Under the pieces are notes generated by a model, which made no database searches, had not been told where the DNA came from, and saw only the letters and a list, made by a program, of their open reading frames with translations. The translations under genes were made by a program, and so were the position numbers. DNA of 64,000 bases from Escherichia coli (GTDB taxonomy: Bacteria; Pseudomonadota; Gammaproteobacteria; Enterobacterales; Enterobacteriaceae): NCBI RefSeq assembly GCF_030013595.1, contig NZ_CP122768.1, one strand, 5' to 3'. Shown piece by piece: positions 14,955 to 21,426 of this stretch; position 1 is the stretch's first letter, and every line of letters begins with the position of its first letter.

Positions 14955-16652
14955 ATGAAATCCCCCGCAGCTTCTCGCCCGCTAAAAATGGCGTTAATTC
15001 CAGCCTGCATTTTTTTGTGTTTCGCTGCGCTATCGGTGCAGGCAGAAGAAACACCGGTAACGCCACAGCCGCCTGATATTTTATTAGGGCCGCTGTTTAA
15101 TGATGTGCAAAACGCCAAACTTTTTCCGGACCAAAAAACCTTTGCCGATGCCGTGCCGAACAGCGATCCGTTGATGATCCTTGCTGATTATCGGATGCAG
15201 CAAAACCAGAGCGGATTTGATCTGCGCCATTTCGTTAACGTCAATTTCACCCTGCCGAAAGAGGGCGAGAAATATGTTCCGCCAGAGGGGCAATCACTAC
15301 GCGAACATATTGACGGACTTTGGCCGGTATTAACGCGTTCTACCGAAAATACCGAAAAATGGGATTCTCTGTTACCGCTGCCGGAACCTTATGTCGTGCC
15401 GGGCGGACGTTTTCGCGAGGTATATTACTGGGACAGTTACTTCACCATGTTAGGGCTTGCCGAAAGCGGTCACTGGGATAAAGTCGCGGATATGGTAGCC
15501 AATTTTGCTCATGAAATAGACACTTACGGGCATATTCCCAACGGCAACCGCAGTTACTATTTAAGCCGCTCGCAACCGCCCTTCTTTGCCCTGATGGTAG
15601 AGTTACTGGTGCAGCATGAAGGCGATGCCGCGTTGAAGCAATACCTGCCGCAAATGCAAAAAGAATATGCTTACTGGATGGACGGTGTTGAAAACCTGCA
15701 AGCCGGACAACAGGAAAAACGCGTTGTAAAACTTCAGGATGGTACCCTTCTCAACCGCTACTGGGACGATCGCGATACGCCACGACCAGAGTCATGGGTG
15801 GAAGATATTGCCACCGCCAAAAGCAATCCGAATCGACCTGCCACTGAAATTTACCGCGACCTGCGCTCTGCCGCTGCGTCTGGCTGGGATTTCAGCTCGC
15901 GCTGGATGGACAATCCGCAGCAGTTAAATACCTTACGCACCACCAGCATCGTACCGGTCGATCTGAACAGCCTGATGTTTAAAATGGAAAAAATCCTCGC
16001 CCGCGCCAGCAAAGCTTCCGGAGATAACGCGATGGCAAACCAGTACGAAACGCTGGCGAATGCCCGTCAAAAAGGGATCGAAAAATACCTGTGGAACGAT
16101 CAACAAGGCTGGTATGCCGATTACGACCTGAAAAGTCATAAAGTGCGCAATCAGTTAACCGCTGCCGCCCTGTTCCCGCTGTACGTCAATGCGGCAGCGA
16201 AAGATCGCGCCAACAAAATGGCGACGGCGACGAAAACACATCTGCTGCAACCAGGCGGCCTGAACACCACGTCGGTGAAAAGTGGACAGCAATGGGATGC
16301 GCCAAATGGCTGGGCTCCCCTGCAATGGGTGGCGACAGAAGGGTTGCAAAACTACGGGCAGAACGAGGTGGCGATGGACATTAGCTGGCACTTCCTGACC
16401 AATGTTCAGCACACTTATGACCGGGAGAAGAAGCTGGTCGAGAAATATGATGTCAGCACCACCGGAACAGGGGGCGGCGGTGGCGAATATCCATTACAGG
16501 ATGGCTTTGGCTGGACCAATGGCGTGACGCTGAAAATGCTGGATTTGATCTGCCCGAAAGAGCAACCGTGTGACAATGTTCCGGCGACGCGTCCACTCAG
16601 TGAATCAACAACACAGCCGGTAAAACAAAAAGAGGCGGAACCTACGCCTTAA
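14955..16652 (+). CDS. treA: Periplasmic trehalase, 565 aa
   Basis: [63 protein letters not shown]...; signal peptide plus GH37 trehalase, matching recalled TreA. Confidence 0.9.
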
Positions 16653-16666
16653 CTTTGCTGTATATC

Positions 16667-16709
16667 GAGCAATGCCATTATGTGCATAAAATTGGCATTG
16701 CTCTTTTTT
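16667..16709 (+). terminator. Rho-independent terminator after treA (11-bp stem gagcaatgcca / tggcattgctc followed by T6)
   Basis: Hairpin plus U-tract seen directly 15 nt after the treA stop. Confidence 0.6.
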
Positions 16710-16934
16710 CGCCACGAAATGCCCCCCATTCTACGGTCTATGCCTTTATTTTCTTTTATCAGAGAAGATTTTAATTTTATTTTATCAATTTGTTAATCAT
16801 TACACCTCTATTTATATTTTTCGCCACTCCGCCATTCTCCCTGACAATTTTCTTGTGGAACAAAGTGTTATTTAAGCAACAAGCAAATCATTCTGTCTCT
16901 TTAGACAAATTTTGACATCAAACATGATTTTTTT

Positions 16935-16958
16935 CGATATATATGTAAATATATAGCG
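16935..16958. promoter_or_regulatory. ModE-type operator candidate: CGATATATA-tgtaaa-TATATAGCG, 25-48 bp upstream of the start codon of the ABC binding-protein gene
   Basis: Near-perfect inverted repeat seen directly; fits the ModE consensus as I recall it (CGnTATATA-N6-TATATAnCG). The downstream operon contains a ModD-like gene. Confidence 0.5.
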
Positions 16959-16982
16959 GTTTTTATTATCAGGATATAACTT

Positions 16983-18005
16983 ATGTCACTAACCAGACGG
17001 AGGTTTACACAGATTCTTGCGTCGACATTGTTCCTGCATCATCTGCCGTCCTTTGCACAATCAGTCAAATTCTGGGCCTCACTGACGCTTCCCGAAGCCC
17101 AAAACATTACACGCATCGTCAGCGCAGGCGCGCCCGCCGATTTACTATTGCTGGCTGTCGCGCCAGAAAAAATGGTCGGTTTTTCCTCTTTTGATTTTGC
17201 CCGTCAGGCATTAATTCCATTGCCAGAGCACATTCGCCAGTTCCCCAGGCTGGGACGACTCGCCGGGCGCGCCAGCACACTCTCGCTGGAAGGGCTTATG
17301 GCGTTACATCCCGATTTGGTCGTTGATTGCGGCAATACGGATGAAACCTGGATCTCCCAGGCACGGCAGGTTAGCGAACAGACACAAATACCCTGGTTAT
17401 TGCTTAACGGGAAACTGGAACAATCAGCAGAACAGTTAACAACGCTTGGCAAAACGTTAGGCGAAGAGCACCGCACCGCAGAACAAGCCAATCTCGCCAG
17501 CCGCTTCGTTGGTGAAGCTCAGGCATTCGCCACCTCACCCGCCGCTAACCTCAGCTTTTATGCTGCGCGCGGTCCTCGAGGGCTGGAAACGGGCTTACAG
17601 GGTTCGTTGCATACCGAGGCGGCGGAATTATTAGGTTTGCACAACGTCGCGCAAATAGCCGATCGCCACGGTCTGACACAGGTTTCCATGGAAAATCTCC
17701 TGCGCTGGCAGCCGGATATTATTCTGGTTCAGGAGGCCGTTACTGCAGATTTTATTCGTCGTGATCCTCTCTGGCAGGGCGTGAAAGCGGTTGCGGAACA
17801 ACGCATCTTATTTTTAAGTGGCCTGCCCTTTGGCTGGCTGGATGCCCCGCCGGGAATCAACCGTCTTCTGGGATTACGCAGACTTCACGCCTGGCTGGAT
17901 CCCGCCATCAATCGCCAGTTTAAAAGTGACATGCAGCATTACGCCCAACTGTTCTGGCATTGCCCATTAAGTGACGCCGACTATCAAAAATTGGTGGCGA
18001 GCTAA
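16983..18005 (+). CDS. ABC-transporter periplasmic substrate-binding protein, cluster A/class III (FecB/FhuD/BtuF-like), 340 aa, Tat-like signal peptide
   Basis: N-terminus MSLTRRRFTQILASTLFLHHLPSFAQS has a twin-arginine-like motif T-R-R-x-F and an AxA-like cleavage site; size and composition typical of iron-complex/cobalamin binding proteins; SD agga 8 nt upstream. Confidence 0.8.
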   Translation: MSLTRRRFTQILASTLFLHHLPSFAQSVKFWASLTLPEAQNITRIVSAGAPADLLLLAVAPEKMVGFSSFDFARQALIPLPEHIRQFPRLGRLAGRASTLSLEGLMALHPDLVVDCGNTDETWISQARQVSEQTQIPWLLLNGKLEQSAEQLTTLGKTLGEEHRTAEQANLASRFVGEAQAFATSPAANLSFYAARGPRGLETGLQGSLHTEAAELLGLHNVAQIADRHGLTQVSMENLLRWQPDIILVQEAVTADFIRRDPLWQGVKAVAEQRILFLSGLPFGWLDAPPGINRLLGLRRLHAWLDPAINRQFKSDMQHYAQLFWHCPLSDADYQKLVAS

Positions 18006-18985
18006 TGAGAACCGTAAACGGATGTATTTTGCTGCTGGCAGCTATCAGTATCACTTTTGCCGCCGTAAGTGGGGCTTATCATCTCGATATACAGCAACTG
18101 CTGGCGCTCATTCTGCGTCAAGAAAATGTTCCTGTGCAGGAACAAATTGTCTTCTGGCAAATCCGCGTGCCGCGTATTCTTGCTGCGCTGTTTCTGGGCG
18201 CGGCGCTGGCAGGGGCCGGAACCACCTATCAGGGAATGTTCCGTAATCCCTTAGTGTCACCGGATATTTTAGGCGTCTCCGCCGGTGCCGGACTTGGTGC
18301 CTGCGCGGCAATCCTGTGGGGATTATCCATTGTTTACATCCAGCTGTACGCATTTTGCGGCGGGCTGATGGTGGTCGCGGGCGTCTGGTTGATTACGCGT
18401 CGGGTGACCCGCCACGATCCGATCTTAACCCTGGTGCTGGTAGGCATTGCGTTAGGAACGTTGTGCGGAGCGGGGATATCGCTAATAAAAACGCTGGCCG
18501 ATCCTTACACCCAGTTACCGTCAATTACCTTCTGGTTGCTGGGGGGGCTGTCCACCGTGACCTTACGCGATCTCTGCTATGCTGCACCGATCATTCTCAT
18601 AGGCTCCTTGCCCCTGTTTTTTCTCCGCTGGCGCATGAATTTACTCACGCTTTCCGACGACGAAGCCCGTTCGCTGGGACTGAACGTGACACGTCTGCGC
18701 TTTGGATTAATTGTCTGCGCCACACTAATCACCGCCAGCACGGTAGCAATAGCGGGCATAATTGGTTGGGTCGGCCTGGTCGTTCCGCACATTGCCCGCT
18801 TGTTGACCGGTCATAACCATCAGCAGCTGTTGCCCATGGCAATGTGTACTGGCGCGATTCTGCTCCTGCTTACCGATACGCTGGCACGCAGCATTGGAAC
18901 AACAGAAATCCCACTTGGCATTCTGACCGCTTTTGTTGGTGCACCGTTTTTCCTGTTTTTGTTGTTACGCGGAGGTCGCCAGTGA
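18005..18985 (+). CDS. ABC-transporter permease, FecCD family, 326 aa
   Basis: Multi-pass hydrophobic protein with FecCD-like segment GAALAGAGTTYQGMFRNPLVSPDILGVSAGAGLG; start ATG overlaps the upstream stop (taATG). Confidence 0.8.
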   Translation: MRTVNGCILLLAAISITFAAVSGAYHLDIQQLLALILRQENVPVQEQIVFWQIRVPRILAALFLGAALAGAGTTYQGMFRNPLVSPDILGVSAGAGLGACAAILWGLSIVYIQLYAFCGGLMVVAGVWLITRRVTRHDPILTLVLVGIALGTLCGAGISLIKTLADPYTQLPSITFWLLGGLSTVTLRDLCYAAPIILIGSLPLFFLRWRMNLLTLSDDEARSLGLNVTRLRFGLIVCATLITASTVAIAGIIGWVGLVVPHIARLLTGHNHQQLLPMAMCTGAILLLLTDTLARSIGTTEIPLGILTAFVGAPFFLFLLLRGGRQ

Positions 18986-19740
18986 CTTTGCTTGCCGTCC
19001 GTCATGCGTCTCTGGGTTACTCCCGCCATCCGGTGCTACGCGACGTGTCCTTCACCCTGTCGCAAGGAACAATTTGTTGTCTGTTAGGAGCCAATGGTTG
19101 CGGCAAAACCACACTCATGCGCTCCATTCTTGGCGTTATACCGTTATTAAAAGGCGAGATCTTACTGGATAGCCTCCCTGTGCAGACACTCAGCCATCGC
19201 CAGCGCGCGCAGGCTATTGCCTGGGTGCCGCAGGCGCACGACGGCATTTTTGCTTTTAGTGTGCTGGATATGGTGTTGATGGGCCTGGCCCCCACCATAG
19301 GCGCTTTTTCCGTTCCCGGTAAGCAAGAACGCCTGAAAGCAACGGAGCAACTGGAAAAGCTGGGCATTTTGCATCTGGCGACACGACGCTGGAATACGCT
19401 TAGCGGCGGTGAACGTCAGCTGGCTTTAATCGCTCGTGCACTCGTCCAGCAACCGCGCTTGTTATTACTGGATGAGCCTGCCTCCAGCCTCGATTTCGGT
19501 CATCAGATCCAACTACTGGACACGCTGGCGCAGCTCAAAAATAACGGCATGACAATGTTAATGTCGACTCATCATCCGCTCCATGCCAACGCCATTGCCG
19601 ACAGCATTATCCAGGTAGAGCCAGATGGACGAGTAACACAAGGCTTACCGACCGAACAGTTAACAACGAACAAACTGGCTGCCCTGTACCGGGTTTCTGC
19701 CGACCAGATTCACCATCACCTCTCTGCAATTAAGCACTAA
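18982..19740 (+). CDS. ABC-transporter ATP-binding protein, 252 aa (GTG start overlapping the permease stop)
   Basis: Walker A GANGCGKTT, ABC signature LSGGERQ, Walker B LLLLDEP; SD ggagg 6 nt upstream of the GTG at 18982. Confidence 0.8.
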   Translation: MTLLAVRHASLGYSRHPVLRDVSFTLSQGTICCLLGANGCGKTTLMRSILGVIPLLKGEILLDSLPVQTLSHRQRAQAIAWVPQAHDGIFAFSVLDMVLMGLAPTIGAFSVPGKQERLKATEQLEKLGILHLATRRWNTLSGGERQLALIARALVQQPRLLLLDEPASSLDFGHQIQLLDTLAQLKNNGMTMLMSTHHPLHANAIADSIIQVEPDGRVTQGLPTEQLTTNKLAALYRVSADQIHHHLSAIKH

Positions 19741-19749
19741 GGAAAAATC

Positions 19750-20550
19750 ATGCTCATTGACGATATTGATTTTGCAGACCTTTACCTTCAGCAACTCAGG
19801 CTGGCCCATCGCACAGAAAAAACGCCGGATCACTGGGATCAACGGGCGGAAAATTGCGCCTCGCCTACGGACAGCTACCTGCAACAACTGATCGCTAAAA
19901 TTGACCTACAAGGCGCTCAGACCTTATTCGATATGGGCTGCGGACCGGGTACCGTATCGCTGGCGCTGGCTGACAAACTCACGACGATTTATGGCGTTGA
20001 TTACAGTCAGGGGATGCTGAAGGTTGCCGCCCGTCGCGCCGCCGCGCTAAAGGCAGACAATGTCCACTGGATCCAGCGCGCCTGGGAAGAGGACTGGAGT
20101 GACCTGCCACGCTGCGATATTGCCGTGGCTTCCCGCTCCACTCTGGTGGCTGATATGCGCCAGGCAATGAGCAAACTGAATAATCAGGCACGGCTTCGCG
20201 TCTATACGACTCATCTGGTCAGCACCTCGTTCGTCTCTCCAGCCATTCAGCGGGCGGCTGGTCGGGAAGTGATCGAATTACCCAACTATATCTTTGCGCT
20301 CAACGTCCTGTATCAGATGGGAATTTATGCTCACGTTGATTTTATCCGTGGACAAAATTGCCAACAGGATAACAGCACCTGGGAACGTTTTGAGCAGAAC
20401 GTCAGCTGGAGTCTGGGCGCGCTTAACGACGATGAGCGTGAGCGGTTATATCGCTGGTATCAACAACAAGATGCTCGTGCCCTCGCCCCTGCCAGCCGCG
20501 ACTGGGCGCTCATCTGGTGGGATAGCGTACCGCAAGAGGCACTGCGATGA
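19750..20550 (+). CDS. Class I SAM-dependent methyltransferase, 266 aa
   Basis: Motif I LFDMGCGPGTVS (GxGxG) followed by an acidic residue in VDYS; embedded in the transporter operon; SD aagga upstream. Confidence 0.7.
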   Translation: MLIDDIDFADLYLQQLRLAHRTEKTPDHWDQRAENCASPTDSYLQQLIAKIDLQGAQTLFDMGCGPGTVSLALADKLTTIYGVDYSQGMLKVAARRAAALKADNVHWIQRAWEEDWSDLPRCDIAVASRSTLVADMRQAMSKLNNQARLRVYTTHLVSTSFVSPAIQRAAGREVIELPNYIFALNVLYQMGIYAHVDFIRGQNCQQDNSTWERFEQNVSWSLGALNDDERERLYRWYQQQDARALAPASRDWALIWWDSVPQEALR

Positions 20551-21401
20551 TTTTCCTTTCTCAGGCACAAATCGATGCGTTACTTCTGGAAGATATCCAG
20601 GGCGGTGACCTGACCACGCGAGCATTAAATATTGGACACCAGCATGGCTATATAGAGTTTTTTCACCGTCAGGGCGGCTGCGTCAGCGGAATTTCTGTCG
20701 CGTGTAAGATGTTAACTACGCTGGGATTAACTATTGATGACGCGGTCAGCGACGGTTCACAAGCGAACGCGGGTCAGCGGCTAATCCGTGCGCAGGGTAA
20801 TGCCGCAGCACTTCATCAGGGATGGAAGGCAGTCCAGAATGTGCTGGAGTGGAGTTGCGGTGTTTCTGATTATCTCGCTCAAATGCTGGCGTTACTTCGT
20901 GAACGTTACCCTGATGGCAATATCGCCTGCACCCGAAAAGCAATTCCGGGCACCCGCTTACTGGCCTCGCAGGCAATTCTGGCTGCCGGAGGACTGATTC
21001 ATCGTGCCGGATGTGCGGAAACCATATTATTGTTTGCCAACCACCGCCATTTTCTTCATGACAATCAGGACTGGTCAGGCGCAATCAATCAGTTACGTCG
21101 CCACGCACCCGAGAAGAAAATAGTTGTTGAAGCCGACACGCCGAAAGAGGCAATCGCCGCGTTACGCGCGCAACCAGACGTACTTCAGCTCGACAAATTT
21201 AATCCGCAACAGGCAACTGAAATTGCGCAAATAGCACCGTCGCTGGCTCCTCACTGCACGCTGGCTCTGACCGGCGGAATTAATCTGACAACACTCAAAA
21301 ATTACCTCGACTGCGGCATTCGCCTTTTTATTACCTCCGCGCCTTATTACGCGACACCAGCTGACATTAAAGTCAGTCTGCAACCCGCAGCCTCTATTTA
21401 A
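20547..21401 (+). CDS. modD: ModD-like protein (quinolinate/nicotinate-nucleotide pyrophosphorylase fold), 284 aa
   Basis: QPRTase-type motif CTRKAIPGTRLL and overall size typical of ModD; start overlaps the methyltransferase stop (ATGA). Symbol refers to the family, not to a verified orthologue. Confidence 0.65.
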   Translation: MIFLSQAQIDALLLEDIQGGDLTTRALNIGHQHGYIEFFHRQGGCVSGISVACKMLTTLGLTIDDAVSDGSQANAGQRLIRAQGNAAALHQGWKAVQNVLEWSCGVSDYLAQMLALLRERYPDGNIACTRKAIPGTRLLASQAILAAGGLIHRAGCAETILLFANHRHFLHDNQDWSGAINQLRRHAPEKKIVVEADTPKEAIAALRAQPDVLQLDKFNPQQATEIAQIAPSLAPHCTLALTGGINLTTLKNYLDCGIRLFITSAPYYATPADIKVSLQPAASI

Positions 21402-21426
21402 TTCTTTGTTAAACGGAATTTATTCT

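Follow-up and report, generated by a model that had tools for sequence, protein, structure and literature searches.

ModE and its operator are textbook material, and the ModE regulon of Escherichia coli has been defined in strain K-12, where the regulator represses modA and activates moaA, dmsA and napF. We have investigated a palindrome at positions 16935-16958 of a 64,000-nucleotide stretch of E. coli chromosome (contig NZ_CP122768.1; the whole stretch is called the window below), which lies directly upstream of a six-gene transporter operon located between treA and ymgE. The operon is absent from K-12, and the island that it forms has therefore stood outside the K-12 studies of the ModE regulon. 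The analysis gives strong in silico support to the palindrome being a ModE operator and to the operon being repressed by molybdate, and we regard both as very probable. The operon is thus a predicted new member of the ModE regulon outside K-12.

The operator of modABC in K-12 belongs to the same 24-bp motif class (CGTTATATT-GTCGCC-TACATAACG, compared with CGATATATA-TGTAAA-TATATAGCG in the island). It is found 19 nucleotides (nt) before the first start codon, compared with 24 nt here, and the first gene of each operon encodes the periplasmic binding protein of an ATP-binding cassette (ABC) importer. The two systems differ in the target operon, and the island box is the closer to the consensus, with no mismatches as compared with two in the modA box. 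A further described relative is MolBC-A, a type II importer carrying molybdate and tungstate (PMC4031551), which has a BtuCD-type fold in common with the island importer. In Haemophilus influenzae Rd, modD (HI1473) adjoins molBCA (HI1470-HI1472) (PMC3928620), and modD likewise adjoins the transporter genes in the island. Of the characterised proteins with solved structures, MolA, reported to be of low affinity (about 100 uM), comes nearest to the island's binding protein. Relative to MolBC-A, a TonB-dependent receptor and a methyltransferase are extra components of the E. coli operon. Further links of ModD are known from Geobacter, where a modDABC operon is under ModE control, and from the nif cluster of Zymomonas, where it is associated with modE and TonB-dependent transporters. 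A 2020 review of molybdenum in pathogens gives ModABC, sulfate transporters and MolBCA as the only uptake routes.

In its architecture the island resembles the uptake systems for siderophores, haem and B12 (FecABCDE, FepA-FepBDGC, BtuB-BtuFCD), in all of which a type II ABC transporter is paired with a class III binding protein and a TonB-dependent receptor. It differs from these Fur-regulated or B12 systems in having a ModE box and neither a Fur box nor a B12 riboswitch, and, unlike them, it includes ModD and a methyltransferase. The same cluster, at the same site between treA and ymgE, is known as prrA-modD-yc73-fepC from a pathogenicity island of the uropathogenic strain CFT073 and as O-island 55 (OI#55; ECs1693-1699, Z1961-Z1966) or S-loop 83 from O157:H7, and iron uptake has been proposed as its role (PMC1890555, PMC12928451). 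In the databases its proteins appear under names such as 'iron ABC transporter'. No ModE or molybdate link for the cluster was found in the accessible literature, with a prior listing in Studholme and Pau 2003 or in RegPrecise being possible. The sequence-only reading from which this work started had called molybdate repression unusual for a FecBCD-type importer. With MolBC-A as a precedent this was overstated as regards the importer. A TonB-dependent receptor under ModE control is without precedent in the searchable literature.

The palindrome reads CGATATATATGTAAATATATAGCG (24 bp) and consists of a left half-site CGATATATA (16935-16943), the spacer TGTAAA, and a right half-site TATATAGCG (16950-16958); neither the predicted operator nor its half-sites are assigned to a strand. 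When the left arm is compared with the reverse complement of the right arm (CGCTATATA), eight of the nine positions pair, and the single mismatch falls on arm position 3, which is degenerate in the consensus. For ModE of E. coli the consensus has been quoted as ATCGNTATATA-N6-TATATANCGAT, i.e. CGnTATATA-N6-TATATAnCG (PMC545781), and this is the form that the sequence-only reading had given. Its description of a 9-bp inverted repeat with one mismatch and a 6-bp spacer was borne out as well, and the distance of 25 bp that it gave to the start codon agrees with the 24 nt that separate the end of the box (16958) from the ATG of the first gene (16983). The sole match to CGNTATATA-N6-TATATANCG in the window was 16935-16958, with no mismatch at the 16 specified positions, the outer CG dinucleotides included. 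The core pattern TATAT-N7-TAYAT also fits the box.

For a quantitative comparison a symmetrised matrix was built from the four validated operators of K-12 MG1655, i.e. those of modA (CGTTATATTGTCGCCTACATAACG) and napF (GGTTATAAATATATTTATATAGCG), with two mismatches each to the consensus, and those of moaA (CGCTATATACATGATTACATAGCG) and dmsA (CGATGTATACAAGCCTATATAGCG), with one mismatch each. The box scored 27.1 bits with this matrix, the four training operators 26.1-30.4 bits, and the runner-up site in the window only 12.1 bits. A scan with a matrix from these four operators had been named beforehand as the test that could refute the operator, and at 27.1 bits the box passed it. When each validated operator in turn was held out, the box scored above it on every three-site matrix (28.0 versus 18.5, 26.4 versus 26.2, 25.5 versus 18.6, and 21.8 versus 15.7 bits). 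The exact tail probability of a score of at least 27.1 bits is 5e-10 per position, and the number of chance matches expected is 3e-5 per 64 kb and 0.003-0.008 per 5.2-Mb genome. For the 330-bp intergenic region, at that region's own composition of 68% A+T, the expectation is 5e-7. A chance origin of the palindrome can be excluded.

An alignment of the binding protein (18 diverse orthologues) was scanned against one genome per species, which yielded 53 loci with a total of 898 kb. These loci derive from Escherichia, Citrobacter, Yokenella, Serratia, Symbiopectobacterium, Enterobacter, Klebsiella, Raoultella, Affinibrenneria, Pluralibacter, Erwinia, Pectobacterium, Providencia, Proteus and Shewanella, and, more distantly, from a few Burkholderiales and one Methylobacterium. 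With a threshold of 17 bits, 63 boxes were found in the 898 kb. Of these, 45 are located one per locus, in 45 of the 53 loci, at most 300 nt and mostly 18-35 nt upstream of the binding-protein gene. Another 15 are second boxes, placed 20-40 nt before the receptor gene and approximately 4.5 kb downstream of the first box, in Providencia, Proteus, Pectobacterium, Serratia H1w and Shewanella fodinae (loci L035, L039, L041-L045, L047, L048, L050, L052, L059 and L061-L063). One box precedes a receptor-first operon in Lampropedia, and only two are strays. Because the receptor gene has a box of its own in the second-box taxa, it would there constitute a separate ModE-controlled unit. In Enterobacteriaceae the receptor gene is fused into the operon, without a box of its own.

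When information content was computed over 22 diverse promoters anchored on the box, it amounted to 1.74 bits per position for the consensus (16 positions), 0.64 for degenerate and spacer positions taken together, and approximately 0.3 for the 40-nt flanks. The flanks are unalignable and the spacer sequences vary between clades. Judged from the aligned promoters, the pattern is that of a classical phylogenetic footprint, independent of the K-12 matrix, and the decisive evidence for the predicted operator is comparative. Within E. coli the box occurs as CGATATATATGTAAATATATAGCG in the window and in O157, and as CGCTATATGTGTAAGTATATAGCG (24.9 bits) in B2/ST131, where the left half-site is CGCTATATG; the right half-site is invariant across seven aligned E. 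coli alleles. Consensus match, matrix score, and conservation across Enterobacterales, Shewanella and some Burkholderiales together support the proposal of the sequence-only reading that the palindrome is a putative ModE operator.

The sign of the regulation was assessed from the geometry of the promoter region. The upstream gene treA ends at 16652 and is followed by a Rho-independent terminator (16667-16709, plus strand) with an 11-bp stem and then T6, a folding energy of -18.6 kcal/mol and z = -3.2 versus shuffles. The transporter operon therefore needs a promoter of its own. A perfect -35 hexamer, TTGACA, was found by eye at 16912-16917 (plus strand), 17 nt upstream of the box, and TTGAY is kept at the same distance in Escherichia, Citrobacter, Yokenella, Enterobacter, Klebsiella, Raoultella and Pluralibacter. 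With the hexamer in this position, the -10 element would be expected inside the left half-site, either as GATATA with a spacing of 18 nt or as TATATA with one of 20 nt, and the -10 of modA is inside the left half-site likewise. In Providencia and Shewanella a -35/-10 pair is located just upstream, and the box lies over the predicted start. A Shine-Dalgarno-like AGGA is present at 16971-16974 (plus strand), 8 nt before the ATG, and caggat is kept in most Enterobacteriaceae orthologues.

The distance between the box and the ATG is 24 nt here and 18-35 nt in the orthologues. In K-12 it is 19 nt for modA, and 175, 73 and 198 nt for moaA, dmsA and napF, respectively. With the box this close to the ATG and a Shine-Dalgarno sequence in between, no promoter would fit on the downstream side of the box. 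ModE bound to the box would therefore sit on the promoter, or between promoter and gene, which argues for repression. The prediction of a molybdate-repressed system by the sequence-only reading is hence supported in silico by the box position. The regulator itself is available in the species, as 5391 of 5426 complete E. coli genomes carry modE; the window itself is without modE.

In the mechanism that we propose, a molybdate-bound ModE dimer would occupy the two TATAT-containing half-sites as long as molybdate is sufficient, and would cover the -10 region and the transcription start, as at modA, so that the operon is off. When molybdate is short, ModE would leave the DNA and the operon would be transcribed, and it could then serve as a second molybdenum uptake route, either for the oxyanion or for a molybdenum-bearing complex. 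On sequence grounds, the island is probably turned on by molybdenum starvation instead of iron starvation.

The iron-uptake annotation was assessed separately. No Fur box was found in the window, where the best match reached 13/19 and was equalled by 97 of 500 shuffles, nor in 19 orthologous promoters, where matches of 10-14/19 were at shuffle level. An Rfam search of the whole window revealed no molybdenum cofactor (Moco) or B12 riboswitch near the operon. Among the NCBIfam models for iron, siderophore and B12 systems (Fec, Fep, Fhu, Btu), none reached its curated cut-off (e.g. 32 bits versus 320 for a FecB-type model and 194 versus 406 for FecD). In the RefSeq record of O157 Sakai, a 66-aa hypothetical protein, ECs_5716 (L006 7028-7228, equal to approximately 16680-16880 of the window), is annotated in the intergenic region between treA and the operon, and the binding protein is named 'ABC transporter ATP-binding protein'. 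Each of these entries has the look of an annotation artefact.

The island (16983-23397) consists of six genes and is set in a chromosome segment with dhaR-dhaKLM-treA on one side and ymgE-ycgR-emtA-ldcA-cvrA on the other. All six genes are on the plus strand. The first (16983-18005; ECs1699/Z1966 in O157) encodes a periplasmic substrate-binding protein of the PF01497 class, the closest solved relatives of which are the structural-genomics entries 4pag and 4ovk, followed by MolA (HI_1472). The protein begins with MSLTRRRFTQIL (window 16983-17060), a signal peptide of the twin-arginine (Tat) type, and both arginines are invariant in the 18 orthologues. It is followed by a type II ABC permease of the FecCD/BtuC fold (18005-18985). 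Compared with solved structures, the permease scored 223 bits with MolB (HI1471), 175 with FhuB, 168 with HmuU and 146 with BtuC, and it is 41.6% identical to the MolB cluster representative. For the ABC ATPase ('fepC', 18982-19740) the best single-domain solved relative is MolC (HI1470, 126 bits).

The next gene encodes a class I S-adenosylmethionine-dependent methyltransferase ('yc73', 19750-20550), which is kept in the operon in nearly all orthologous loci and for which a structure search gave generic matches only. ModD (20547-21401) is a quinolinate-phosphoribosyltransferase-like protein; the ModD-like gene noticed from the sequence scored 501 bits with TIGR01334 (cut-off 179), and structures of quinolinate phosphoribosyltransferases were matched with E = 6e-20. 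The last gene encodes a TonB-dependent outer-membrane receptor ('prrA', 21427-23397) with an in-frame TAG at 21919-21921. This premature stop replaces a Gln (…GWSRSQDNAYD…) of the intact receptor, which comprises 656 aa in ST131 and O157 Sakai. The outer-membrane step has therefore probably been lost in this strain, with the five other genes intact. The receptor copy of the nearest genome is a pseudogene in RefSeq, and the annotation in most of the closest genomes is limited to a 'plug domain-containing protein'; from these sequences, the loss looks lineage-specific. A structure search with the intact receptor gave plug-domain matches only.

The gene order is kept in the orthologous loci (binding protein, permease, ATPase, methyltransferase, ModD, which is sometimes absent, and receptor). 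The full island is present in 2139 of the 5426 complete E. coli genomes (~40%), including O157:H7 Sakai (ECs1693-1699), ST131 and ATCC 25922; in ATCC 25922 the intergenic region is 100% identical to that of the window. K-12-type genomes are without it, and the intergenic region was matched in 2144 genomes only.

As regards the relation to MolBC-A, permeases from Pectobacterium and Symbiopectobacterium that are 55-57% identical to MolB were tried as members of the operon family and rejected, as they showed only ~40% identity to the permeases of the loci (tblastn); they are the true orthologues of MolB and make up a group of their own. This result, together with the 41.6% identity of the island permease to MolB, indicates that the operon is a sister family of MolBC-A, and thus a relative and not an orthologue. 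ModE-like boxes were also observed in Pasteurellaceae upstream of molA, with which the characterised MolBC-A importer family begins, one at a distance of 36 nt (L065 6900-6923, CTTTATATACTTTGGTATATAATG, 15.2 bits) and one at 23 nt (L067 6922-6945, CGCTATGTATATTATTATATATCC, 23.5 bits), each being the top match within its own 17-kb locus. No statement on ModE control of molBCA was found in the literature examined.

Several observations weigh against the interpretation of the locus as a ModE-repressed molybdenum system. The matrix was built from four sites only, and the two E. coli alleles of the box differ at three of 24 positions, confined to degenerate position 3, position 9 and the spacer. 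In eight of the 53 loci no box upstream of the binding-protein gene reaches 17 bits. The box-less loci include L030 (Citrobacter braakii) and L046 (Erwinia phyllosphaerae), in which the binding-protein match begins only at residue 36-37, as if the 5' end had been rearranged or degraded, and L053 (Symbiopectobacterium), a symbiont genome in which the box has decayed to 16.7 bits. A consensus promoter scan called no promoter over the box, because at a spacing of 17-18 nt from TTGACA the sequence offers no -10 hexamer whose sixth base is T. No paper on the regulation of the operon's promoter was found in a literature search that included the locus tags ECs1693-1699 and Z1961-Z1966. The receptor is truncated in this strain. 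Finally, the likeness of the binding protein to MolA is weak and partial (profile E = 2e-13), and with this partial likeness and a 42% identity to MolB, molybdate is a putative substrate only.

One rival explanation would be an AT-rich palindrome, or a -10-like sequence, arisen by chance before a Fur-regulated iron transporter, in line with the 68% A+T of the intergenic region and with the database names and papers that say iron. This is refuted statistically by the expectation of 5e-7 for the region, and the box is kept in 45 of 53 loci while its flanks are not; moreover, the Fur match of 13/19 is at shuffle level and no iron-family cut-off of NCBIfam was reached. The palindrome could instead be the operator of another transcription factor with a similar AT-rich inverted repeat, as ModE binding is here predicted from sequence and the spacer, TGTAAA, is similar to one half of a TyrR box. 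However, the sequence holds no TTTACA partner for a TyrR box, all 16 specified positions of the ModE consensus match, outer CG included, and the same motif precedes molA in Pasteurellaceae. We know of no other E. coli regulator with a ModE-like consensus and consider such a factor very improbable.

Scarcely more probable is a ModE site that activates transcription or is a non-functional relic in E. coli. Activation by ModE is established for moaA, dmsA and napF, and a relic might be expected where the receptor gene is decaying in this lineage and K-12-type strains are without the island. However, with 24 nt to the ATG a bound activator would have no promoter on its downstream side, boxes at the activated promoters of K-12 stand 73-198 nt from the ATG, and both box and spacing are kept across many genera, with five other genes intact. 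A more serious alternative, though still an unlikely one, accepts the ModE operator as real and has the operon import something else under molybdenum starvation, e.g. tungsten or a chelate of iron or another metal. Chelates and cofactors are typically taken up by systems with such a TonB-dependent receptor, binding protein (class III) and ABC transporter (type II), the methyltransferase and ModD suggest processing of an organic ligand, and the binding protein is only distantly MolA-like. There is also an analogy with diazotrophs, in which ModE represses molybdenum-independent alternatives, and with Azotobacter, where TonB-dependent receptors with ABC transporters are induced only without molybdenum and vanadium. 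Against this stand the repeated ties of ModD to molybdate ABC transporters of both types, the permease and ATPase being nearest, among solved structures, to the molybdate/tungstate importer MolBC, and the lack of a Fur box in the sequences searched.

Outside the island, two copies of the STnc490 small RNA (sRNA) family were observed in the window, at 37679-37802 (plus strand) and 62908-63031 (minus strand), with 146.4 bits each. They are inverted and 25 kb apart, and are probably part of a repeated mobile element. A further Rfam match was to the C0299 sRNA at 40140-40218 (minus strand, 111.9 bits).

Returning to the ModE-repressed operon, we tentatively propose, as a possibility that falls short of an even chance, that it is a TonB-energised molybdenum-scavenging pathway of Enterobacterales and Shewanella. 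The substrate of the receptor and the MolBC-like importer would then be a complex of molybdenum or tungsten, perhaps a chelate ('molybdophore') that the cytoplasmic methyltransferase and ModD process. The ModE box, the missing Fur box, and the kinship with MolBC-A and ModD together would move the cluster to molybdenum homeostasis. If the proposal is true, this would be the first active outer-membrane route of molybdenum transport described in enteric bacteria, and a cluster that has for twenty years been counted as an iron-uptake virulence marker of extraintestinal pathogenic (ExPEC) and enterohaemorrhagic E. coli (EHEC) would be a molybdenum system. Molybdenum supply limits anaerobic respiration (nitrate, dimethyl sulfoxide and trimethylamine N-oxide reductases, formate dehydrogenases) in the inflamed gut and the urinary tract, and a second uptake route, possibly TonB-energised, would therefore be physiologically relevant in pathogenic lineages. 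With such a route, ModD, whose role has been unexplained ever since it was discovered, would acquire a function as well.
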